From Trichodelitschia bisporula (Eukaryota): a stretch of 64,000 bases of DNA. A model generated the notes under the pieces. The model did not search any database, had not been told where the DNA came from, and saw nothing but the letters and a program-made list of their open reading frames with translations. Shown here piece after piece: positions 6,063-60,998 of the stretch (its first letter is position 1; each line of letters opens with the position of its first letter). Both the position numbers and the translations under genes were made by a program. Location of the stretch: the NCBI GenBank assembly GCA_010356995.1, contig ML996688.1, positions 620,001 to 684,000 on the forward strand, given 5' to 3'.

Positions 6063-8552
6063 GGTGGCTTGCCGTTGAGACCACCGTAAGTGTCACCGTG
6101 AACAAGCACCGAATGGTCTGACGATTGCAGAACGGCCTGCAGCCCTAAGGGAGCGAAGCCGAATGGGGTAAAAATGTGGCTGGAAAGCTCTATGTGGAAG
6201 GCTTGTGGCGCAGGCTGTGTTCCGGTAGTTGCGGGGCATCTACGGCTGCCCCTGTACATACCTTCATTTCTTGTTCATAGGTCTAAACGAACTTGAAGTG
6301 TTGAGGAACATTGCGAGCTGGATTGTCTCATAGTGTGCTGCATGTACCAACGTAGCTTCGCGTCTTGACTCCAAAGAAGCTAAAGGCCTGGCCAATGGTT
6401 GTACTCCGTACGTCGATGTACCAGCTTTCAGCCCAACGACCTCCATTGCCTTCCGACCAGTACGGGTAGGTGGAATGAGATGTGACTGCAGACAAGATAA
6501 GCTCGGAGCAACTGATGGCGAGAGTTCGAAGCGTACGGCTGTAGATATGTCCAGAGCAACGAGATATTACCATAGAATTCAAAGGTGCAACGACAAGAAG
6601 AGATGCAACGTCGTTGAGTTTCCCTTTCGCCGTGGTCCGTCTCCACACTACGGTAGTGGCTGGATGGGGGGTCGGCGAGCCCTATCGGCAGTGCTCGGCC
6701 ACAACCGCTTGGCGAATCAAAATACGTTAATTAAGCGAAAATAGGAGGGGAAATCGGAAGGGCAAAACGACGATTGGACGACGCTGTCGAATCAACAACA
6801 CATCCCGCCAGAAGTGAGGGGCACTAACCAGCCACGTGTGGCTGGAGCTTTCAGGTGGGCAGTTCTACGGTACTACCGTACATGCGGCTACTTTTAGGCC
6901 GAGTGCTAAAACTTTATCCCAGCAGCCACGCGTGCTTGTCCTAGCGTATAGTGTATGTCGTTCGTGGGTTCGCTGCGACTGTCAGGGCTTCTAGGGCCCA
7001 CACGGTAGCTGTCGAGAGTGGAGCTTGACTGCTGTGGCTGGCGTGGAACGGGCGGTGCTGTTAGTGATGCTATTGGGGACTGAGGCACAACGGGTGTCGT
7101 GAGAAATGATGTCTGCCTGGCAAAAGAAACTTACCACGCCCCACCCAAGCAAAGTCAGCCCTGCCCTTCCGCATGCGTGTGCAGTGCAGTGCAGCGCAGT
7201 GCAGCGCAGTACAGGACAAGTATGGTGTAGCAAAAACCTACACTCTGGCCGTTTTAGGTGACCGACATTGTTGCGATACCGCTGAGAGCTATTCGATTTG
7301 ATGATTTGTGTGCCTTGCCGTGATATGTATGGAGGCATGTATCTACGTCAGTGCAAATGACTGTGTGAATAAGGAGGTAAGCATGCAGAGAGTTAGGAAG
7401 AAATTGAAGGAAAGAGAGCAAGGGATTTCGAAGCAACCTTTGAGACTTCGACTTCTAGACCGAGCGACCTATAATCGAAATCGTCGGTTGCTGGCAGCAT
7501 TGTACACCTATTTGCCTGCTTGCTGCCGTAATCCGTTCGTGTGAGACGCATACACGACTACCAGGTACGACAAGCTTTCTCTCGTTCCATCGTGTTGCTG
7601 GTCTTTGTCCGACATCACACGCCGCCCAGCGGCACTTCACGGCTTCACACAGCCTTCAGCAATCCTTTGTCCGCTAAGAAAACCGTCAGATTCCTCCTGG
7701 CTCCTTCTTTCCGCAACTTACACTACCGTTTCTAGCGCTCAATGGCTTCTCCGAAGCAAGTAATCCCAATTTCTCATCCAAGCTGACTCTGCACGCTTTC
7801 CCCTCTTGTCCATCGCTTGTAGCCTTCAGCGGCCACATTTTGATGCTTGGCTGCGCCCCCCTGTCCGTTTCTATTCCAATGCGCAGCTCCAACAACCCCC
7901 AAGCAAACCCAGCCAAACTCCACCCCCCACCGGCAACAGCCAGCCTCGCACGCATAGCGGGTATGCGGAAGCATCCGGCAGCCGTTCTCGAGAGCTGCGA
8001 ATTCGACACCTTGCCGTGTGGGTATGAGTTTACGGATTACACCTTTCCCTTCTTCCTCAATCTTGCTTAGGCCGTATCAGGTGCGCCCTGATCCCCCCGC
8101 CCAACCTTAAACTTGTCAGCTCCATTGTGTGGCTCAGAGCATGCCTCTCTCTCGGCCCTGTATCCCCCCCCATCGCGCACTCCGAAAGTGACTCGTCAGA
8201 GCGTTATACGGATCTTGTCTTGACCTTTCGAGTGCTCCCTTGCGCTCTGGTAACTATAAAGTCCCCCGATGTCATGTCGTTGCCTTGTAAGCTACCGGTT
8301 CTCCCATCCCATCTTTCGTCATTCATTCGCCCTTTCCCTTCACCCATTGCGTGTTTCTTATGGTTTCCTTATTCCACTTGCCTACCTTTTGACTACTTTA
8401 ACCTCAAGTCCGCATACCTTCAATCCTCCTCTGCAAAAGGGTCTGGCGGAGCCTTCCCCCCCACGCTTCCATTCAATAAACTTTCGACGTCATTCCGAAG
8501 TCATACCTCACATCGGCCCAGCAACCCCCCCTCGGTCGCCTCTTACTTCACC

Positions 8553-48250: not shown

Positions 48251-50524
48251 CTATATCTTCTCGAAAAGACTGAGGGTAATGGGGCCGAAAGCCTCTGACT
48301 GCTTCGCCTTGAGCTTGTGGCGCATCGCCAGCGTAAGTACATGCATGAGCGACTGCGCAGCAACGACGCGAGAGTTGTCTTTGGGCGGAAGCAACTCCTC
48401 GAATTCGATGCTCACAGGCTGACCCTGGTCACCGTCATCCGCAGCAGCAGCAGCAGCCTTGTTCTCGAGCGTCGTCTCCACGAAATTGAGAAACTCCCTC
48501 GCCTGGTCGTCAAGCCTCGCCATCTGCCACGCGTACTGGTCCGCCGTCTGTGTATCCACCATCGCTGCCGGACCGTACAGCTCGAAGTCGTCATCGGCAA
48601 TTGACCCCGGGCCACCGAAATCGAATCCGGCGACGCTTGAGCTGCGCCCGCCGGACGGCAGGATGTCAAGTCCGCTAGGTCGGCTATGGCCCATCAAAGG
48701 GGAGACCTCGGGAAGGCGGCTGCCGGCGCGGCTCCCACGGCCACCCGAGATAACGCGCGATGTGCTACCAACAGGGGCACGTGCAACTGAGGAGCCTCGC
48801 GCCGAGACACTCCAGGGGAGAGCGGAAGACACGTCCCCAAGGCCACCGGACTCAGCTTCACGTGGCAACTCAGGCTCATCATCATACCTCAGCGGACCAT
48901 CGTCGATCATGGCGTCGTCACCACGGCCCACTTGGTCTTCTTCGGTACGGGCGCGGACACGACGGTCCTCCTCGGCGGCTGGGTTATCCTTGTGAGCACG
49001 CTTCTGGCCAGTAATCTCGACGGTGTCACCAGTGACCAGAGCGTACAAGGACTCGCCGCTGAATTGAGCAAGAAGGGGATGAGCCTTGGGCAGACCAATC
49101 CCGCTCCCGATGTTGTTGATACCGACGCCGAGAGTCCAGTATTCCGCATTGATCTTGGCCTGCCTACCGGCCTTCATGGCGACCATGCGCTTACGGTTCT
49201 CCGCCATACGGTCCAGGTAGTCTTCATTCCACTTAATCAGGTCTCTGTTACGCAGCTCCACCGTAGTGTCCAGCTGGATGAGTTTAGGAGTGCGCGGCTT
49301 GCGACGAACTTCGGCAACAGCCTCCGCGTACTCCGATCCGGGGGAAGATGGAACCATTCCTTCCTCTTCACCGGGAGGGTGGTACACCTCGGAGGGCCGA
49401 AGCGGACTGGTATCGGCCAAGTTAAAGCCGTCCTCAACCGGCGCGTCAATGTCCATCTGGTCGCCTTGCTGGAGCCCGAATTAGTAAAAGATCCTTTCAG
49501 TGGCTGGCTGTTACGCACCATAAGATTTGCGCCAAGCTGACGACCCTCTTCATGCTCCCGGCGAACGCGGGAGCTCGCGTCACTAGGGAGCTGAGGTCCG
49601 CGCGGCGCGCGAGGGGTAACGTGAGGGCTCTGTCCCTGAGGATACTCGCGAATGTTGCCTTCATCATCAAACTCAAAGTCAATATCAGGCAGGCGATAGT
49701 TGTCTTCTCCACCCAAAGTGTCGCTATGGTGGTGGACGACACTCGCGGCGCGGCTATGAGAGCCCGCATAGCTGAAGGCGCCCATGTCGCCAATGCTCGG
49801 CGACGAAGCCAGGCCAAGTCTAGAGCCCGGAGTTGGAGAGGACCAGGTGTGGATGGACCCGGTGCCTGACATGACTCTATTGGCGAGCATTGGAGTATCA
49901 AGGTTCGTGAGCTCATCATCAAGCGGGTCCAGTAGCAGGTCCGGGAGGAAGCTGGGATCATCTTCAAGCAGCAGCTGGGGTGGTCTAGGTTGTCACTCGG
50001 TTAGTCTATGCCACAACCCTCTTTGCAGTTACGCACCGAGCCTTTTTAGGAGTCTCATCGATGTCATGCGTCTGTAGAGTGCTGAGCGAGATTCGGATTT
50101 GGTTCTGCGCAACTCGAGCATCGGAGAGGACGTAGTCGCATTGCTGCGCGTGCACACGCGCCACACCGTAGCTGAGATGATCAGCGCCGGACAGGTTGCG
50201 GAAGACGAGGATCCTACAGAAGATTGCTCTGAAGACGCAGCGCCATGGGCGCCTCAGGCTTTGAGATGGTTTCGCATGCCTTAGGTACATCCACTTCAAG
50301 GATAGCCTTGCGGGTCACTTTCTTGAGCGTCGACTTTTGACCGAGGGTGGCGACGAGCCTTGGGGACGTCAGTACATTCTCTTCGTAAACATCCTACTGG
50401 ACGTGCAACTGGTGCCACTTGCCAGATGGTCGCGACGCCATACTTGCGCGAGGTCAAAACTGGACATAATTAGACGTTTGATACTCCAGTTGACATACTA
50501 CTAACCCTCGTGGCTGTAAAACAT
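48251..50524 (-). CDS. REC8: Meiotic cohesin kleisin Rec8 (6 exons)
   Basis: Spliced N-terminus MFYSHEVLTSRKYGVATIWLVATLG...DVPKACETI..PEAPMALRLQSNLLYGVARVH; C-terminal winged helix 'FEELLPP..NSRVVAAQSLMHVLTLA....LKAKQSEAFGPI'; ExxR separase-type sites (ELPR, EEGR). The pattern fits Rec8 better than Rad21. Confidence 0.9.
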
Positions 50525-50587
50525 CGTGATCGGGCCGCAGCTGCAATGGGCTGTGGTGGAACACAATGGCGGACAATCAGGGATGTG

Positions 50588-50640
50588 GAAGAATGGGAAG
50601 AATGGGGGAAGAATGGGGGAAGAATGGGGGAAGAATGGGG
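50588..50640 (+). repeat. GAAGAATG(n) short tandem repeat just upstream of REC8
   Basis: Five copies of GAAGAAT followed by G runs of 3-5. Confidence 0.8.
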
Positions 50641-51053
50641 CAAACAGAGGTGAGAAAGATAAAGTCATAGGTCCCAGGAGGGTGTTGTGCGGACACGGCG
50701 TCTAGGATTGGTGCCTGAAGAGGTGCCTCACGATGGCATGAAAGTGTATCTGAGCAGCGTACCTGACCCCCTTGGCGACCACATGCGCAAGTATCTTCTC
50801 AAAATTGCCAATACAAGAGACAAGTCAAAATTGCAGGTGAATGATCAGTAACATTCATGTGTTCGCTGGCCCCTGGTGAGCTTTATCAAATATCGCCGCC
50901 GAGCATGCACAGACTTCCACAACCGACAACACCTACGCTAATTCATTACTTCATGCGTCTACCCACTCATGGGCCATGCTTCAGGTTGGGTCAAAAATCC
51001 TACTGTCAGCACCCAGGGAATGCTCGCATGAATGATCAATGTGCTTTTATCCT

Positions 51054-52948
51054 CTACGCCTTTTCGGACTCATCCAGGACGGGAAGAGGTACTGCGCGGT
51101 AGAGAAGGATGAGAGCAGAATGGCTCTGGCCTGCGGTTTCATCAGCATAAGTAATCTTAACGAAATCAGAGTTTGCGTACCGCCGCCAGCAAGAGACTCA
51201 ATACGATCGTAGTCGACCTCCGTGACCTTGTCGTCGTTGAACCACCACCACTTGCCATCCTCCTCCTTCAGCTTGCCGGTCTTGGGGTCCTTGCGACCTT
51301 GCTTCTTGATAAAGGCAGTGTAGTGACCGCTGTCGGCGCTGATACCCTGGTGAGCGACGACGCCACGCAGCTCATAGAGACCAGTCTGGTTGGCTCCCAC
51401 GTCCGCGCTCAGCTCGGGGTTCACAAGGCTGAGAACCTCCTTCTTGCCGGCAGTGACAGCGGCGGCACGCTCAGCCTCGGCTTCAGCATCCGTCTTGTAC
51501 ACAATATCGGGCATTTCGGTATCTCCACCAGCCGTAGTACTCCTCTCGCCCCCCTGCCTCTCTGCCGCGAGACTCGCTTGCGAGGTCGGTCCTTTGGCCT
51601 TGGTGACTCGCGCCGTGTCATTTTCCTCCCCATCACGGATGCGCTTCTGGCGCTTCCGAGCACGCTCAACATCTTGCTCTTCCTTCCGCACATCTCTGAT
51701 TTTATCGCGAACCGGGATAAGCATCTTTTTCAGGTCATCGGTACAGAACTCGACCGCGTCAAGCTCGGACGGAAAGGTAACTTTCCTCATGATCTTCGCC
51801 TTTTTGTTGGTCGTACGGCGCCAGTCGAAACGCATGAAGTGCACGGGGAGATATTTCGGGAGGCGCGAGATCTTGGAAGTCTTCGTGTAAAGAGCGTCAC
51901 GATCCAAAGTCTCAGAACGCTTCTCGATCTGCTCCTTTAGTCCAGCGGCAAGGCCATCGCGCAGGTGGTTCGTTTCGCCACCGATGTGGCAGTTCAGCTT
52001 GAAGAAAGTGTCTTGACCAGTGACAGGCTTTTCTCCGCGTTCTTTGGCGACCGGATCGTCACATTCCATGACTGTATCGAATTTGCCGGCCATGTACTTG
52101 CTCACGAAGGACTCGGTACTGGATGATCCGCCCTCCTCGCCCTGAAGCTTCAACTTCTGGTGAAGTTGTGAGACGATCTGAGACCAGGCTTCCTCGGCAT
52201 CCTGTTGAGCGTATCCCTGCCCCTCTCTCGACCGCTGAGCGAACTGCGGAAAGGCGCTCCGGAGCGCTTGTAGAAAAAACATAGGAGGAAATCCTTCCTG
52301 GGTCTCTGCCATTCGCTTGAATAGATCACGTAGGCTGGAAGTAAGATCGGAGGAGCCCCCCGAGAGTAGGCTACTGGGGCCTTGACCGAAGGTGAAGGTC
52401 GGAGCGCTGGTGGCGGTACTTTCAGACAGTTAGCATGCGCAACAGCGTGTAAACACGTCCCAACTGCCCACCTTCCATTGTATTTCGCAAGTTCCTCTTG
52501 TAGCTCGGGTATCGAACGCAAGGCCTGGAGTGTAGCGTTCATGTAGCATGTATTCCCCAGGTTCTGAAGCCCGGCCGGGATGGCTCCCTCAGTCTGCGCA
52601 ACCTCTGCCTCTGTCATGTCCTCCAGGAACCGTATAGCCTCCTTCGGCTTCTCCAAGGCCGGCCCCCCCGCAGGCGTACCCATCATCATGAAGGTCTGAC
52701 CAGGCTTCGCCTTCAGTGTCGAGAGATCGGTGTCATCCTTCAGCTGCCCGCCTTTGACCAGAATCTTCTGCCTGTCGGGTTCCACGCCGGTGAGGGAATA
52801 GAGCTGGTACTTGAATGTTTCACCGGTGGAGGTCGGGTCGAGCTCGACTTCATAGCGCTTGCCTTGGTGCTTGACGATGACTGAACCATGCGTTAGCTGG
52901 TAAATAAATGCATTCCATGCACCTGTAAGTACCTGGTATCGCCGCCAT
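51054..52948 (-). CDS. UBP6: Proteasome-associated deubiquitinase Ubp6/USP14 (4 exons)
   Basis: N-terminal UBL 'LYSLTGVEPDRQKILVKGG'; Cys box 'GLQNLGNTCYMN', 'QQDAEE'; His box 'HQGISADSGHY'; 'WWWFNDDKV'. Confidence 0.97.
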
Positions 52949-53050
52949 TTTGATTCTACACCGTGCAAAGCTATGGGAACCTTGGGGAAATGCTTGCAGG
53001 TGGAGGGGCGAATGTTTCGGAGGCAACTAGAACTACTTTGTAAATGTGGG

Positions 53051-53102
53051 GGAGCTTGCTCATGGGTCATTGATTTCTAAACTGGGGGTTGCCTTCGGAG
53101 CT
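53051..53102. promoter_or_regulatory. Two GGAGCT motifs in the UBP6/ARPC4 divergent promoter
   Basis: GGAGCT at 53051-53056 and 53097-53102. From memory, this hexamer is enriched upstream of proteasome genes in filamentous ascomycetes. Confidence 0.35.
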
Positions 53103-53244
53103 TGGGTTTTTCCTTGTGAAGGTCGTCGCCATCATCACGTGCGGGGTATGGGTGTGGCAGTCGAACCTCACCGGTATTCCCCTCATAAACAGTCTGGTAA
53201 CCAAATAACCAGTACGTCGGTCTGCGTGCTTGAGAACGTGCGCC

Positions 53245-53962
53245 ATGGTAACTAGTACACCTGATATGCTGTAGAACCACCGTTCTAACCCTCACAGTCG
53301 CAATCACTGAGACCATACCTGCAATGTGTCCGATCATCGCTCACCGCAGCGCTGTCGTTATCAGACTTCGCCTCACAGGCGTCCGAACGGCACAATGTTC
53401 CAGAAATTGAGGCTGCCAGCTCGCCGGAAGTTTTGTTGAACCCTCTTACGATCGCCCGCAACGAAAACGAGAAGGTTTTCATCGAGCCCAGCATCAACAG
53501 CGTGAGAATCAGCATCAAGATTAAGCAAGCCGACGAGATTGAGCATATCCTTGTTCACAAGTTCACCCGCTTTCTGACCCAACGTGCGGAGTCATTTTTC
53601 ATTCTCCGGAGAAAGCCTATCAAGGTAGCATTCAGCCAATGTGGTTTGAAGCCTTGCTAATATTGCCCTCAGGGCTACGACATCTCTTTCCTGATTACGA
53701 ACTTCCACACCGAGCAGATGCTGAAGCACAAGCTTGTGGACTTTATCATTCAGTTCATGGAAGAAGTCGACAAGGAGATCTCAGAAATGAAGCTATTTGT
53801 ACGCTCACATTTTCCAGGCCTAACGCCATCCTGTCCCGTCGAATCTCGATGCTGACCCCTTAATAGCTGAACGCTCGGGCTAGATTCGTTGCCGAGTCGT
53901 TTCTCACCCCAGTAAGTTAAGTGCGATGGTGAGATTCTGGCTAATCATTACAGTTTGACTGA
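53245..53962 (+). CDS. ARC19: Arp2/3 complex 20-kDa subunit ARPC4 (5 exons; first coding exon is only the ATG)
   Basis: [19 protein letters not shown]...ERHNVPEIE...[21 protein letters not shown]...[47 protein letters not shown]. Confidence 0.98.
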
Positions 53963-54334
53963 GTTTGGGCCTCCTATTCTCGTTTCCGGCGCAATCCGAT
54001 GTGAACGTCTCCATCTCGTGTGCAGATCAAAAGTCGAAAAGTCAAAAAATTCTCGGCTAACTGTCGAGTCGAGCGTCAATGCCGCCAGTACCGTTCGCAG
54101 CAGCGAATCTCAAATGGTTACTTATACCCAAGGGGTGTCATCAGCAATGAATCCATTATAAGAAAGTGCTTGAACCCACTAATGTGAATGTTTTGACAAC
54201 CCAAGTACCAGTGTGGCCCGTCCCTTAGCACATCTTTCAAGTCCCTGGCATATTAAGTTGCGTCCTATATAGGGGTCAAAGCTCGGTGACCGTTCAGACG
54301 TTCTAGAATGGTATGCTCTCATTGCCCCTAAAAC

Positions 54335-54459
54335 TGGGACGAATCATCATAAGCCTGATGCGTCGTTCAGCATCATCAGTTTATACCGCATTCGACATGG
54401 GACAAACCATCATAAGACTTATGAGTCGCTCAGCATCATCAGTTTATATCGCATTCGAC
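54335..54459 (+). repeat. 63-bp imperfect tandem duplication (2 copies)
   Basis: TGGGACGAATCATCATAAG...GCATTCGAC repeated with a period of 63 bp and several substitutions. Confidence 0.85.
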
Positions 54460-54848
54460 CTGCGGCGGTATCCCCTTTCCGATGCTAAGGCTCAGGAGGT
54501 TGTGTCACTTCTCGATATGGGACAACTTCCTCTTGTCTCGGACGTACATGAGATGCTATATATCAGCATACGCAACCTAAAGTACATCAGCCAGTGTATT
54601 CTGCCGCACGCCAACCTCGGGCAACCTTCTCGCAAACTGCTTCCAAGCAACGCAGTGGACAGTCGTGGAATTTACTAATCTGGCCATCCCCTTCAGCGAT
54701 CCTCTGTCAAACATCACTCTCACAACCCACCCTTCGTCTCCATACCGCAACATCATCCATTGAAATTGGGCTAGTAATCGCCACCATCACCACTACAGCA
54801 CGCTTCGCGTCTTTTTCCCTTTTCTCAAGAACTTTCAAATTCACAACA

Positions 54849-57800
54849 ATGGCGGCACTTGCTCAACCTGTCATCACCATCACGTCGCCTACGGGCAGGA
54901 CGAACTCTGTGAGTCAAACAAACCCTATGGCCTTCTTACTTGCCATGATTCCCTGGCGTGGATCATTGGGCGCAGTACATTTTACCATAGGCCTACCACT
55001 TCGCATATGAACTCGTTGCTGATCTCGTTGCATTAGGAATCCCCGGATACTGTTGTCGCGGAGTATGCGGAGGGTAAGTTATCATCAGCTTAGTTGCACT
55101 AAACTTCCACCAATGGTGACTTCCCTTAACCTTATACCATAGGCTCTATCTCTCTCGCTATACCACACACTTATGTCCCATTGGTGTTCGCTGACAGTAA
55201 ATGCAATCGGTCTCATGATGCTCAGCAGCTGGCTAACCTGCCAATAGGCCTCTTTGCAGATTCCGCACCCAGCACGCAATCGCGCCCTGGGTCGACCGAT
55301 CCGAGTTTCCGTTCGGAGAGCCCATCGCTTGAGCCGGAGTGGGGCAGCTGGTCGCCGCAGTTGAGCATCCGCTCCCAAATCCATGATGGTGAAGATATGG
55401 AATCGGAGCCGGGTTGGGAGCCCGAGGTGAAGGCGAGCAGCCACCGTGGCCTGGTTGAGGAATATTGCGACGCATCGGCGAAGCCTGAAGAGCAGATGGG
55501 AGTGGCGATCCCGCCCGTCAAGCTTGAGCAAGCCAACCGTGGTGTGGGTGTTGTGAAGCTCACTCATGTATCTCCCCTTTGTCCGTTGTTACACTGCATT
55601 CGCTGATGGTGCTAGATTGGCTGGGACGTGTGCAAGGCCCAGATCATCGACATGCTCGGCGCTACGGCGACCGGTGTCCTACAGTGGCCGGAGGGCTCGG
55701 GGATCTTCAAGATCCACATAATCCAAGACCGCACCGATGGCAAGACTCATGGTGCATACATAGAGCTCAAGGACCTGAAGGCCGCACTCCTCGTGGTGAA
55801 GCGTTTTGAGAACCGCTTTCTTGCCGAGAAGCGGGCGGCCGCGAAGTCAAAGAATGGATGGCTTCAGGTACCGGAAATGGCTGCTCCAAAGCCTCCCATC
55901 TCGCCCAAAGCGAGCATAGCCTCCGTCTCGGACATGATGAAGGATCTGTTTCCTCGGGCCAAGTGCGAGTGGGTCAACGGATATCCTGTGCGCTCAATCG
56001 ACTTCCTTTCGAATAATCCGGGCAATTGGGAAGGCTTCATCACTAAGGAGGAAATGTACAAGGTACAGACCATGTCAGAGAACCCGCTCAGCTTTAGCGC
56101 TCGCCATGCGCAGAAATGCCCCGAACGCCTTTACAACATGGCCATTAGCTCGCTTCAGCGCATGCCTTGGTCGGCCGACCGTGATTTCTTCCCGAGGCCT
56201 TGGTTGCATGCTCTCGATCGCTTGCTGTCCCGCGTTGCCGTTGCGCTGGTCAAGGCTGTTTACTCCGCAGACATGGAGCTGTCGCTTCTTCACAGCTTGA
56301 TGACGACGCTAATGGCCTCGGAGCTCTACATAGTCAACCGGCAGAGCTTCTCCAAGTATCTGAGGATTGTGTACGCCGTCATGAAGTTCCTGCGGCCGCG
56401 CCGCAAGCTCATCCAGTGGGAGCCCTGGATGTGCATCAAGCCGATGTCTTCGGTGGATCTCAAGGTCTGGCTCACAAAAATGCCGAAATACTACCCCTTC
56501 GAAGAAGGGCTCTTCCCTCGTTACTTCCCAGTGGTCTCGGCGACTCAGCAGGGTACGCTCCCGTCGCCTCTGGAAATTGCCCTAGGACAGCAGGGTGCCG
56601 TACAGTATCCGTTCTCGGAGCAACAGACCTCGCAGTTGGCAACTCCCATATCGCCGCAGGTTCCGTTTCTCGCACCCGTCGGCATGCTGCGGAACGAATT
56701 CGTGGATCCGATTAGCCGCGAGTCGGCTGTGTTTCCGTTTCAGCTGAACGCGGTTCATGAGCAAGCGTACGACTTGCACGGCAATCCCATCCAGGAGAAT
56801 GTGCCGGGTATCTCCGTGCCCGACTTGCCAGCAGACATGAATCTCGCGCCTTGCTGTATTCACGGTCCCTGCCCCGCGCACACCACATCTCATGAACCTG
56901 GCCGCGTGAGCCCGCCCCCTTTCACTGAGATGCAGCCTCGGATGCTGTCCCCCGTCCCAGAGGAGCAGGACGCGGCGTCCTTCTATTCTCCGCAGGTTTC
57001 ACATGCATCATCGGCCGAGTATGCTCCACAGGACTCGAACATGCCAACTCCGCAGATTGCCAGCGCGAATGTCGATCAGGATCCGAACATGGGCGCCCCT
57101 CAGTTTCAAAGACACTTCCTCTCTCAGGGATTCGATCCACGCCAGTTTTCCCGCTACTACATTCCCGCCGATAATCCATTCACTCAGATGGTTGCGAATC
57201 AAGCTGTCAATCAGTTCGCTCAGCAAGTGGCCAACCATGTGGTCAACCTGTATGCTCAGCAGGTCGCCAATCAGGGTGGACCTCCCGTCAACCACGCCGC
57301 GGCATTTGCGGCCCAGACGTACGCGCTGGGCTATAATGCTGCCTTGCAGAGCGTTGGCCAGGTGAACGGGAACAGTGCTTGGATGGGCCTTGATGTGAAC
57401 AATGCTGGGATGAACTTCGCTCCAGGGTCCTCTGTGGCTTCGGGCTTCCAGACCCCTGACTTTTCTCCATATCCCGGCTCCGGCGCGACGACTCCTGGGC
57501 TTGGTCCGGACTCCGGCGTCGGTGTTCTGACTCCTAGCTTTGTCCCTGCTCCCGGGCTTGGTGTCCCGGCTTCTGGCTTTGCCCCAGCTCCAATTTCCGG
57601 CGTCCCGAATCCCGGCTTTGCTTCGGGTCCCATCTCTGGCATCCCAAATCCTGGCCTTCCTTCCGCTCCCAGCTCCAGCATCCCGTATCCTGGTTTTGCT
57701 CGGGCCACCGGGCTCGGCGTCTCGGGTGCTGGGTTCAACCTCGGAGCTCCAGGCTTCACCTCCACTGTCCAGGGCCAGTCCAATCAGGATGCTGAGCAGC

Positions 57801-57979
57801 GCAATGGTAATGGTGCTGAGCAAAGTGGTATGCAATCCTCCGAGCCGTCTAGTGAGGGGAGGTCCCAGCAGTACAGCCAGACTGCCCCACAGCACAGCGG
57901 TCAGGGTCGGAAGCGCGCCAAGCGTGGTCGTCGTAACACCTCTGATGGGGTGATTTCACGCGACCTGACGGGCATCTAG
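54849..57979 (+). CDS. Divergent RRM-containing protein, SAD-7-like, with a long low-complexity C-terminus (5 exons)
   Basis: ACAACA-ATG start and four GT-AG introns. RRM-like 'GVVKLTHIGWDVCKAQIIDMLG...IHIIQDRTDGKTHGAYIEL', then 'MKDLFPRAK..W', 'GFITKEE', 'CPERLY...ISSL..MPW'; C-terminal basic NLS-like 'RKRAKRGRR'. Confidence 0.75.
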
Positions 57980-58386
57980 TCGAGCGTTCTTAGCAGATCA
58001 ATTAGTGGTTGTACGCTAGTGTGGTGACGGTGGTGCACGTAGCCAACTCTCTGAACTTCATAACAGATAGGCCAGAGTGGCTAGAATAAATAAAAGAATT
58101 TCCCCTGAACAGACATGACAGAGATCAATTGACTTGTGTCTATAGTGATCGTGAACGGTGATGAGCGTGAGCGATGAACGTGAGTGGTGTATAGTCTACT
58201 TTTGTACCAAAACGTATGAAGTTGAAAAAGCCAGAGAAACACACAAACCGCCACTAGATGCCAAAACCCGCCCCCAACCCCATGCCAAACCCCATGCCAA
58301 ACCGCTAACAATCATCAAAAGCCCCCCTACAGACCCCCTACAGACCCATCCAACCGCCAACAAGCAATAGAAAGCCCTCGAAGCCT

Positions 58387-60998
58387 CTACAAATCCTTCA
58401 GCGCCGCCCGAACCATCTTCTTTTGTCCCTCCCCCAGCTGCCCTTCGGGCCAAACCACATGCACCTCAAGCACCAAATCGCCCCTCTCCTCCGGGCGGCG
58501 GTAATCGCACATCCCCAGTCCAGTACGGCGCTCGATCCAACCCGTCGGCGTGGGACCGGGGTGGCTGACCGTCACTGCCTTGCCGCATATGCTCGTCATG
58601 GTCAGGGACCAGCCACACAGGGCGTCGGCAAGTGGTACATCGAGCGTGCAGTGCAGGTCGAGGGAGTGGCGGGTGAAGGTGGGATGGGAACGCTTCAAGG
58701 GCCGTCAGCACACATTCTTCGACTACCACTAAACGTCCAGGGTCGACTTACCTCAACAACAACGAAATGCAAGTCCCGCTCCACGCCCCCAGGCCCAATA
58801 TCTCCCTCGCCCCGGAACTTAACCCGACTCCCCGGCTTCAACCCCTTATATATAGGTACCTCAACATCATGCTCCTCCTCAGTCCACCTCCGCCTCTTCT
58901 CCTCCCACACCTTGCGCCGAAACGTAACCCGCACCTTCGTGCCATAAAACAAATCCTCCAAACTAACCGGCAACTGCTTAATCATCGGCCCCGTCTCCTC
59001 GCCCTGCGCCAGCGGCGACGGCGAATCCGCCATTCTCCCCCTCGGGCTAAACGTACTCGACGCCGCCGCCGGACTCGTCACCGGCTGATTCCCCTGCGGC
59101 GGCGGCGGGAGCGACCCAACTGACGCCCCAACCCCCGCCGGCAGCGGCGGAACAGGCGGCACCCCCCCCCCCGGCGGCGGCGCATACCCCCCGCGGCCCG
59201 AGCTACTCCGCGTGCGCGCCGGGGTATCAAATAACGTGAAGTCGCCCGCGCCGATGAAATCGACATACTGCGTCCCCGCCGCCGCGGGCATGTCGTATAA
59301 CCCCCCTCCTCCGGCCGGCAGATCGTCGGGGTATGACAAAGACGCCATGCCGCCGCGCGGACTCAACGGCATGGCGCGGCCGCGCTCAAGCACAGTCGGC
59401 AAGCTTGCGCGGGGGTCGGGTCCGTATTTCGAGCTGCTGCCCTGCACGCCGGCGGCGGATGAGGAAGAGGCGGAGGATGAGCGGCCCCATTCTCCGCCTG
59501 CTGTGGGTTCCGGTGCGTCCCAGTAGTTCGACCCTTCTGGGTATGCGCCGGGAATGGGTGGGTAGTGCGCGCTGGGCGAGCGGTGCGCGGCTACGTTCGA
59601 GCGCTGCGAGCTGCGGCGGGAGAGGGCGTTTTCGGGCCCGGAGCGCGGGCTGTGGCGCGGGGTGGTCTGGGCGTAGCTGCTGGTTCGGGAGTGGTCGGTC
59701 CGGGAGTCACGGTCGCGGTCGCGGTCGTGCGGGTCTCGGTCCCTGTCGCGCGGCTCTCGGCCCCGGTCGCGCGCTTCTCGGTCCCTGTCGCGCGGCTCCC
59801 GGTCGCGTAGGTCTCGGTCGCGCGGTTCGCGATCCCGGTCACGTGGCTCCCGGTCCGGCCGCTCTAGCCCACTTGCCGTGCTTGCGCGCTTGCGCCGCCG
59901 CTGGTGGTCGTCGTGCGGGTAGTCATCTGCGTGGGTGGGGGTTCCACGGTCGATGCTGGCGTGGTGGGCGCGCGGGGGACGGCCTCGCGAGGAGCCGGCG
60001 GGGGAGCGGGAGGGGGAGGGGGCGGAGGGGGAAGGGGTTTGGCTGGGGTGGAGGCGCTCGTTTATCGAGCTGGTTGGGGATGGATTTTGGGGTTGGGGAG
60101 TGGACGGGAGGTCGGATTCGGAGATGAGGGTTGCGGAGCGGACGACGACGGTGGGAGGAGGGGGTTGGGGGCTGTTGGCGTTTTGGGTGGGGCGCTCGCG
60201 GATGGTGGCTGCGTCGCTGTCGCTCCGGATCAAGTGGTAGTGCGCTGGTTGTGGCGCATCCTCGTCAGTGTCGTCGTCACAGTCTTCGACCGTGGGCTGG
60301 AACGGGCTTGCCGGCACGGAGACAGACACACGCGGGCTGGCATTCTCACTGTTTGAATCGCGGGCGCTGGACGGCGCGCCGCTGGACGACGGACCTGCGG
60401 TCAGGGCTAGCTGGGCGGGGGGCTCGCGCGGCGAGAGCTTCTGCCAGTCTTCGCGGCCTTCGATTAGGTCGAGGAGGCGTGCGAAGGCGTCTTCGTGTGC
60501 GAGGATCCGATCTCGTGATGAGCGGAGGCGGGATCGGTCGGGGGTTGCGCTGGGCTGGATTAGAGCGTTGAAGTCCTGTAAGTCGGATCGCGTTAGGCGT
60601 GCGATCTGGCTGATGCGCGAGTTGATGTGCTCGGAATCTTGTCGGGACTTGTAGCTCGGGTGATAGATGAGGATTTCGAGATCGACTACCACGTCGCGCA
60701 GGCGATGTACTGGAAAGGTTATTATTGCACATTGGATTCAGGAGGAAGAGTAGAGCAAGTAACAGGCGCTGAGCATAGTACGGTCGACACGATAAATCAT
60801 ATAGAAGGCAGAGATAAGGATATATCACACACTGTTCGGGTAATAGGCCAAGCAGAAGACGAAACGAAACAAGACAAGATATCCGCACTAGAAGCGAATG
60901 CACTCACAGTCATTGTATGCTGGTGTCTTCTTTGGTAGCTGCTTCAATGTAGACGAAATGTAGCTCTTGAGCGAGCCCAAACTGTCGAGGGTCGACAT
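58387..60998 (-). CDS. DnaJ C-terminal (substrate-binding) domain protein lacking a J-domain (3 exons)
   Basis: Proposed start MSTLDSLGSLKSY (60998), intron ~60907-60710. C-terminal 'LPVSLEDLFYG...KGLKPGSRVKFRGEGD...DLHFVVVE/RSHPTFTR..DL...VPLADALCGW...GLGM...RGDL' matches Sis1-type CTDs; no HPD motif. Confidence 0.8.
59700..59862 (-). repeat. Coding 21-bp repeat encoding DREPRDR (RD/RE-rich tract)
   Basis: About 7 imperfect copies visible in the translation and the DNA. Confidence 0.8.

Follow-up and report, generated by a model that had tools for sequence, protein, structure and literature searches.

In a 64,000-nucleotide stretch of the Trichodelitschia bisporula genome (GenBank assembly GCA_010356995.1, contig ML996688.1, positions 620,001 to 684,000, hereafter the window), the gene at 54849-57979 is probably the positional orthologue of Neurospora crassa sad-7, which acts in MSUD (meiotic silencing by unpaired DNA), carried in a fast-evolving lineage. 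The gene sits in the ancestral slot, directly downstream of ARPC4 and in the same orientation, and encodes a core homologous to that of SAD-7: an RNA recognition motif (RRM) without the usual RNP aromatic residues, then a conserved region together with a helical bundle. Judging by what SAD-7 does in Neurospora, the protein may be an RNA- or protein-binding adaptor that acts around sexual development.

By sequence, the predicted protein belongs securely to the SAD-7 family. The first-pass annotation of this DNA had read in it an RRM followed by the motifs LFPRAK..W, GFIT.EE and CP.R.Y...IS.L...PW, and all of these are present in the translation, as THIGWDV, DLFPRAKCEW, GFITKEE and CPERLYNMAISSLQRMPW; all three post-RRM motifs of the family (LFP.AK..W, GF.GF.T.EE and CPQR.YE.MIS.L.K.PW) are found as well. 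With N. crassa SAD-7 itself, the window protein shares the core motifs LFP.A...W, GF..EE and CP.R.Y..IS...K.PW and the helices that follow them. The proposed kinship with SAD-7 is borne out by BLASTP, in which the last exon aligns to NCU01917 with just 27% identity over 207 amino acids (aa) (E 2e-16), in an alignment that starts at the third strand of the RRM and reaches into the helical region, and by a core profile made from 113 Sordariomycete orthologues (N. crassa residues 490-875, 368 positions), against which the spliced window model scores 73.5 bits (E 1e-21, positions 12-233/368). The protein used as NCU01917 was found by exact look-up to be EAA36312.1, 'hypothetical protein NCU01917', 875 aa (P0284 in our set), and we identify it as SAD-7 because its accession and length match those given for SAD-7 by Samarajeewa et al. 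2017 (PMC5555490).

When residues 1-345 of the last exon were searched with HMMER against 1.84 billion representative proteins, 145 matches were obtained at E <= 1e-3, led by a metagenomic protein (P0002, 3e-43) and by Venturia nashicola TLD23565.1 (P0003, 4e-41, 40% identity); the link to the Neurospora proteins came via a Pseudoneurospora match (P0064). The SAD-7 profile is matched by 144/145 of these proteins, the sole miss being a 127-aa fragment. In the reciprocal direction, which covered the 64-kb window, the profile matches this gene alone among 1314 six-frame open reading frames (ORFs). Word-indexed protein searches, with either the window protein or a 48-sequence alignment as query, returned only the locus's own 349-aa annotated protein, and a single-sequence search of the PDB with the window protein gave nothing meaningful. 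Three Pfam 38.1 families, DUF8400 (PF28442), DUF8399 (PF28440) and RRM_11 (PF28441), are precomputed domains on Sordariomycete SAD-7 orthologues, and the Atlas clusters nearest to the window protein carry the same three, with scores of 0.87-0.90, a range (<=0.90) that we treat as leads only. In the profile alignment, RNP2 reads V-K-L-T-H-I in the window and V-K-I-T-N-L in N. crassa, while RNP1 reads T-H-G-A-Y-I-E-L and T-Q-D-A-Y-I-E-F, respectively. The SAD-7 RRM is described as having no aromatic residue at position 2 of RNP2 or at position 3 of RNP1 (PMC5555490), and the window RRM likewise has none at either.

The second line of evidence is position. The first-pass annotation had claimed that sad-7 adjoins ARPC4 in N. 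crassa, and this is supported by Table 2 of PMC6455062, where N. crassa ARPC4 is NCU01918, the number that follows NCU01917 (sad-7). In the window, ARPC4 ends at 53962 and the SAD-7-like gene starts at 54849, both on the forward strand. Elsewhere, three Aureobasidium gene models have a complete ARPC4 domain (residues 1-166) fused before the SAD-7 family region, and PF05856 and PF28442 occur together in four Sordariomycete models (Aphanocladium, Claviceps maximensis, Stylonectria and Colletotrichum karsti). Because a mis-fusion of this kind arises only when two genes are adjacent on one strand, these models place ARPC4 and SAD-7 side by side. A metagenome scan with a family alignment (A3) yielded 11 further loci encoding SAD-7 family members, and a scan with P0002 as the query found no relative. 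Six of these loci have enough upstream DNA to be tested (L001, L002 and L008-L011; L003-L007, which begin inside or just before the gene, were left out). In 6/6 of them the gene immediately upstream, in the same orientation, is ARPC4, and in 5/6 UBP6 lies beyond ARPC4 on the opposite strand. The slot next to ARPC4 is occupied alike by the canonical member of L002 (274 bits) and by the divergent-clade member of L001. The order UBP6-ARPC4-SAD-7 is widely conserved.

A separate observation concerns a SAD-7 family protein from Paecilomyces lecythidis (P0113, KAL1881510.1), to which the public record gives the name 'Actin-related protein 2/3 complex subunit 4'. We rejected this name as evidence of adjacency, since Pfam detects no ARPC4 domain in the protein; gene models in which ARPC4 and SAD-7 are fused are the probable source of the name.

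The gene model has four exons, of which the first two are based on splice-site consensus only and the last is an uninterrupted 787-codon frame. Between the third and fourth exons lies a short intron that divides the first RRM strand, and its removal improves the match to the SAD-7 core profile by 11.6 bits, the last exon by itself scoring 61.9 and the spliced model 73.5. A phase-0 intron is found at the same codon boundary in L001 (~6840-6896) and in L008, L010 and L011 (just before 7983, 7908 and 7989, respectively), and the ORF layout of L009 equals that of L008, giving 5/5 of the frame-broken loci; the loci with a long ORF (L002-L005) are without this intron. In the AlphaFold2 model of the last exon, the predicted local distance difference test (pLDDT) score exceeds 88 for most of residues 1-260 and exceeds 85 over most of the RRM part. 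With its 787-codon open exon, this confident fold over roughly its first 260 residues, and 26 invariant columns among seven clade sequences that are 38-44% identical, the gene looks intact.

The window copy is strongly divergent, as had been noticed from its 'HIGWDV'. Across 45 core columns, each at least 80% conserved among 138 representatives, it keeps 30/45, compared to 35/45 in Venturia, 41/45 in N. crassa and 45/45 in both Aureobasidium and Neodothiora. The median for 93 well-covered representatives is 96%, and only two (P0061 and P0095) are as low as the window. Loop 1 of the RRM reads H-I-G-W, versus N-I-P-[FY] in the family and N-L-P-Y in N. crassa, the conserved arginine before the last RRM strand is replaced by proline, and a 16-residue insertion absent from the six clade relatives precedes that strand. 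In a quick tree search (34 rows, 225 columns), the window protein, Venturia P0003 and P0002 form a clade with a Shimodaira-Hasegawa-like approximate likelihood ratio (SH-aLRT) support of 100, in which the end branch of the window protein is 1.57, versus a median of 0.35.

The clade also differs in architecture. The core profile does not align the C-terminal module (positions 234-368, CPGF..QK...WPF...Y..LI..T) in the window protein, so the last third of the N. crassa SAD-7 core is undetectable there, and a separate profile of the module scores -0.5 bits against it (E 0.51). Venturia P0003 and P0002 are also unmatched by the module profile, which matches 5/5 Eurotiomycete members tested (E 9e-15 to 3e-3). 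The RRM begins at about residue 129 of 926 in the window protein and at about 150 of 664 in Venturia, near the N-terminus, whereas that of the 875-aa N. crassa SAD-7 lies in the C-terminal half, behind a variable N-terminus (PMC5555490). The long disordered region correspondingly follows the core in the window protein and precedes it in SAD-7. Venturia P0003 and the metagenomic P0002/L001 have the same clade signature as the window protein (IHIIQDR, FPRAKC.W and NP..W.GF.T.EE.KV). Their tails are less alike, the window tail being rich in P/A/G/S/Q and the Venturia tail consisting of SPVRR repeats.

At the level of the family, the models and profiles give a supported lead that the SAD-7 RRM is closest to the quasi-RRMs (qRRMs) of hnRNP H/F, Glorund and ESRP1. 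A profile of 55 SAD-7 family sequences has as its four best PDB matches Glorund qRRM1 (5uzg, 6.6e-6), hnRNP H (6dhs, 1.4e-4), Glorund qRRM2 (5uzm, 4.8e-4) and hnRNP F (2hgm, 1.5e-3), in alignments that include r.lGdRhVevelSsqe against RIGHRYIEVFKSSQE. The model of a canonical 401-aa member (P0057) is one compact unit of RRM, small hairpin and helical domain (pLDDT 93.1, predicted template modelling score (pTM) 0.91). Its first four Foldseek matches are Glorund qRRM2 (two chains), Glorund qRRM1 and ESRP1 qRRM2 (E 6e-4 to 2.5e-3), and its first five VIA-align matches among 48,161 chains are all qRRMs of Glorund, hnRNP H or ESRP1 (Z 7.6-8.1). For the partial RRM model of the window protein, Foldseek gives E >0.2, and among the RRMs ESRP1 qRRM3 and Glorund qRRM1 come first. 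Three loop motifs of qRRMs also occur in the SAD-7 family: ..IP[FY].. in loop 1, R..GK.T..A[FY]VE[FL] and R.G.R.[VI]E[VI]..SS. When compared to the qRRMs of hnRNP H/F, GRSF1, ESRP1 and Glorund, the family RRM differs in that it is predicted to be fused with the helical domain into a single globular unit. The window copy keeps R..GKT..AY.E but has glycine for the loop-1 proline, proline for the conserved arginine and the insertion described above; because two of the three loop motifs common to the family and the qRRMs are altered in it, binding specificity may have changed in this clade. For the helical domain, Foldseek finds nothing at E <= 1e-3. The best VIA-align matches of the window model are the Smaug PHAT domain (Z 8.4, root-mean-square deviation 4.8, 126 residues) and SAMD4A D-PHAT (Z 7.4), and Smaug PHAT appears again for the canonical model (Z 7.2); these scores are below the level that the program states as meaningful for helical folds, and a PHAT-like fold is a lead only. 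The terms qRRM and hnRNP have 0 occurrences in the text of Samarajeewa et al. 2017 (PMC5555490), and no paper in the collection searched contains 'SAD-7' together with 'qRRM'.

Several observations weigh against this reading of the gene. Local Pfam-A assigns the window protein no RRM or other family even at E <= 10, so its RRM assignment relies on homology to the SAD-7 family and on the predicted structure, and in that structure the RRM is modelled without its first strand. The window protein departs from the family at 15 of the 45 conserved residues; P24 of loop 1 and R96, which precedes the last strand, are two of them. The public protein recovered for the locus (P0147, 349 aa, 56930-57979, from an internal methionine, MQPRML...) spans just the last part of the low-complexity tail, and the conserved RRM and helical core appears unannotated. 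The margin of qRRMs over other RRMs is small (Z 8.1 versus ~6-7), for which reason the qRRM likeness is a supported lead rather than proof. The loop consensus of qRRMs, as worked out for hnRNP F, includes an aromatic residue (tyrosine) in the R-Y-I-E loop, loop 5, and at this position the SAD-7 family has P or H. The function, moreover, is extrapolated from one species. Finally, the window/Venturia/P0002 clade stands on a long stem (0.94), apart from Aureobasidium, Neodothiora, Cercospora and Bogoriella, and such a placement is also the pattern of an old paralogue.

This last point bears on the claim, made when the gene was first noticed, that adjacency to ARPC4 would support orthology despite the divergence. 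The positional evidence is strong, with the locus numbers of N. crassa, the 6/6 metagenomic loci and the fused gene models, and the tree speaks against simple orthology. If the gene were an old SAD-7 paralogue put to a new use, a canonical orthologue would be expected at another place in this genome; the stem and the long end branch that separate this clade from all other sequences, the four named Dothideomycetes included, would then be explained, as would the different domain architecture with its undetectable C-terminal module. Such a paralogue would, however, have to occupy the exact slot held by canonical members in the testable loci, L002 as well as L001, and its phase-0 intron lies at a position common to several canonical loci. 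The 64-kb window also contains one family match only, and no species in the match lists has two clearly different copies, although these lists are not a systematic search. We consider a paralogue unlikely, and since L001 combines the divergent type with the same gene order, we read the clade as a fast-evolving lineage of orthologues.

Transcript-level evidence bears on whether the gene is functional. Two sequencing runs (X1 and X2) cover the region as contigs. Neither run is recorded as RNA, and genes cannot be ranked by contig depth. The contigs contain RNA-derived sequence, as they are joined across canonical introns in UBP6 (3/3), ARPC4 (4/4) and the kleisin gene on the far side of UBP6 (1/5 predicted). 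In the SAD-7-like gene, 0/3 predicted introns are joined: two contigs cover 54805-58041 without a joint and contain all three, so a spliced coding mRNA is not seen in the contigs of either run, and this too counts against the reading above. The retained introns could stem from RNA that was not spliced or from DNA present in the runs, in contigs that show presence and not absence. Neither run has any cover at 54318-54668.

A decaying or non-functional sad-7 remnant, giving at most unspliced RNA in a lineage that no longer needs sad-7 (for example, a largely asexual one), would account for the retained introns, one of them with in-frame stops, together with the 15/45 conserved residues lost, the undetectable C-terminal module and a public annotation that holds only the 349-aa tail ORF. 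It is hard to reconcile with a 787-codon exon that has neither stop nor frameshift, with the 26 columns held invariant in a clade of such low identity or with a model that is predicted to fold confidently. The spliced form may also exist beyond what these contigs show, and the unspliced ones could come from DNA in the runs. Decay is thus given only a small chance, and an intact, fast-evolving orthologue is preferred. A generic RRM protein unrelated to SAD-7, matched by chance through short motifs, would fit the empty local Pfam-A result and has next to no probability, being ruled out by the E-value against SAD-7 itself, by that against the SAD-7 profile and by the family membership of 144/145 forward matches, and being further opposed by the Pfam 38.1 families that the nearest Atlas clusters share with N. 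crassa-type proteins.

Features of the SAD-7-like gene and its neighbours (window coordinates)
Feature	Position	Strand	Description
Rad21/Rec8-family kleisin	48251-50524	-	predicted coding sequence, 671 aa, six exons, single open frame
Kleisin intron joined across by contigs	49985-50036	-	the one of five predicted
UBP6-type deubiquitinase	51054-52948	-	coding sequence, 579 aa, three introns, Pfam ubiquitin(-like) and UCH domains
ARPC4 (Arp2/3 complex 20-kDa subunit)	53245-53962	+	coding sequence, 169 aa, four introns, Pfam E 3e-48
SAD-7-like gene	54849-57979	+	four exons, predicted coding sequence 926 aa, single open frame
Exons of SAD-7-like gene	54849-54908, 55037-55073, 55248-55567, 55616-57979	+	ATG 54849, stop 57979
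Third intron	55568-55615	+	48 nt, phase 0, two in-frame stops, splits first RRM strand (...VVKLTH / IGWDV...)
Degenerate quasi-RRM-like domain	55535-55927	+	from profile and clade alignments and AlphaFold2 model; interrupted by the 48-nt intron
Conserved post-RRM region and helical bundle	55928-56395	+	LFPRAKCEW, GFITKEE, CPERLY..ISSLQRMPW; about SAD-7 profile positions 106-233
Low-complexity P/A/G/S/Q-rich tail	56483-57976	+	~500 residues; from composition, tandem repeats and pLDDT <50 where modelled
Tandem repeat in tail	57596-57704	+	39 nt x 2.8 copies, encodes G-F-A-S-G-P-I-S-G-I-P-N-P-like units
Basic cluster RKRAKRGRR near C-terminus	57908-57934	+	candidate nuclear localisation signal

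The remaining member of the block is the kleisin gene, which had been called REC8 and taken as a hint of a meiotic pathway. Its assignment to the Rad21/Rec8 family holds, with Rad21_Rec8_N found on two exon pieces (46.9 and 30.2 bits) and the Rad21_Rec8 C-terminus at E 1e-5, but its meiotic significance is unsupported. Of the loci compared, just the window and L001, the locus of the closest relative, have a kleisin next to UBP6, and L001 has the same order kleisin-UBP6-ARPC4-SAD-7. In the other metagenomic loci, some of which extend 3-4 kb beyond UBP6, no kleisin match was found, which is weak evidence because this protein is poorly conserved. The synteny of REC8, UBP6, ARPC4 and the RRM gene that had been proposed for checking therefore holds for ARPC4 and SAD-7 (6/6 loci) and for UBP6 (5/6) and is unsupported for the kleisin (found in L001 only), which is outside the conserved order. 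The Atlas clusters for the kleisin are named generically as Rad21/Rec8-like, and its N-terminal piece matches none of the RAD21 chains in the PDB significantly (E 0.7), a weak hint against RAD21. As the adjacency is limited to the window and L001, and as the kleisin may be either REC8 or RAD21, the idea of a meiotic cluster is unsupported. The kleisin is most likely a coincidental, lineage-specific neighbour, and nothing in the evidence links it functionally to the SAD-7-like gene.

The X1 contig that is joined across 49985-50036 in the kleisin gene retains the four other predicted introns (50460-50505, 50359-50422, which is a predicted GC-AG intron, 50172-50217 and 49469-49518), and the X2 contigs have the same pattern within their coverage. 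Either a meiotic gene may be retaining its introns here or the introns may have been predicted wrongly. A bolder proposal would combine these contigs with those of the SAD-7-like gene: the Venturia-type clade would have remodelled SAD-7, keeping the core and the ARPC4 slot, losing the C-terminal module, altering two of the three qRRM-type loops and gaining a disordered tail, and both this gene and the kleisin would be held as intron-retaining transcripts outside meiosis. We regard this combination as improbable; if it were true, a repurposed SAD-7 would be under the control of a splicing switch specific to meiosis.

Some smaller features of the region can be added. Upstream of the kleisin ATG, at 50587-50640, there is an 11-nt tandem repeat (5.1 copies), in which the X1 contig is shorter by one repeat unit (it lacks 11 nt at 50595), so that sample and assembly differ in copy number. 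The DNA between ARPC4 and the SAD-7-like gene contains a 63-bp tandem duplication at 54335-54459 (2 copies, 88% match), about 400 bp upstream of the predicted ATG. Downstream, an ORF on the reverse strand (58695-60737, 680 aa) has a C-terminal DnaJ_C domain (E 2.4e-9) and a long stretch of low complexity rich in RD/RE/P; a J domain was not seen in this ORF.

Much of this picture has precedent. Samarajeewa et al. 2017 report SAD-7 homologues in many ascomycete classes, with the flanking genes syntenic in 14/14 Sordariomycetes as well as in a single species from each of the Leotiomycetes, Dothideomycetes and Eurotiomycetes, and already propose a conserved role for SAD-7 in sexual reproduction outside MSUD (PMC5555490). 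Literature searches for SAD-7 work outside the Sordariomycetes found nothing beyond that paper. The suggestion of a Dothideomycete orthologue of SAD-7 was thus correct and already in print, and the accompanying meiotic hint from REC8 is unsupported. Because Dothideomycete orthologues with synteny were published in 2017, the novelty here is modest; aside from the remodelling and the qRRM link, this is an expected orthologue in an expected place. Our analysis adds a remodelled, fast-evolving clade without a detectable C-terminal module, a public protein that consists of the tail only, a qRRM-like RRM for the family, and a kleisin that lies outside the conserved order.

SAD-7 is the least understood of the MSUD factors, and Neurospora needs it for sexual development too, so knowing which of its parts are evolutionarily dispensable narrows where its function lies. 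For genome annotation, the case is one in which the conserved part of a gene is missing from the public protein. The clade described here shows that the qRRM-like domain and the first helical bundle can persist without a detectable C-terminal module, and the link to qRRMs at the family level offers a concrete, testable idea of what SAD-7 binds.

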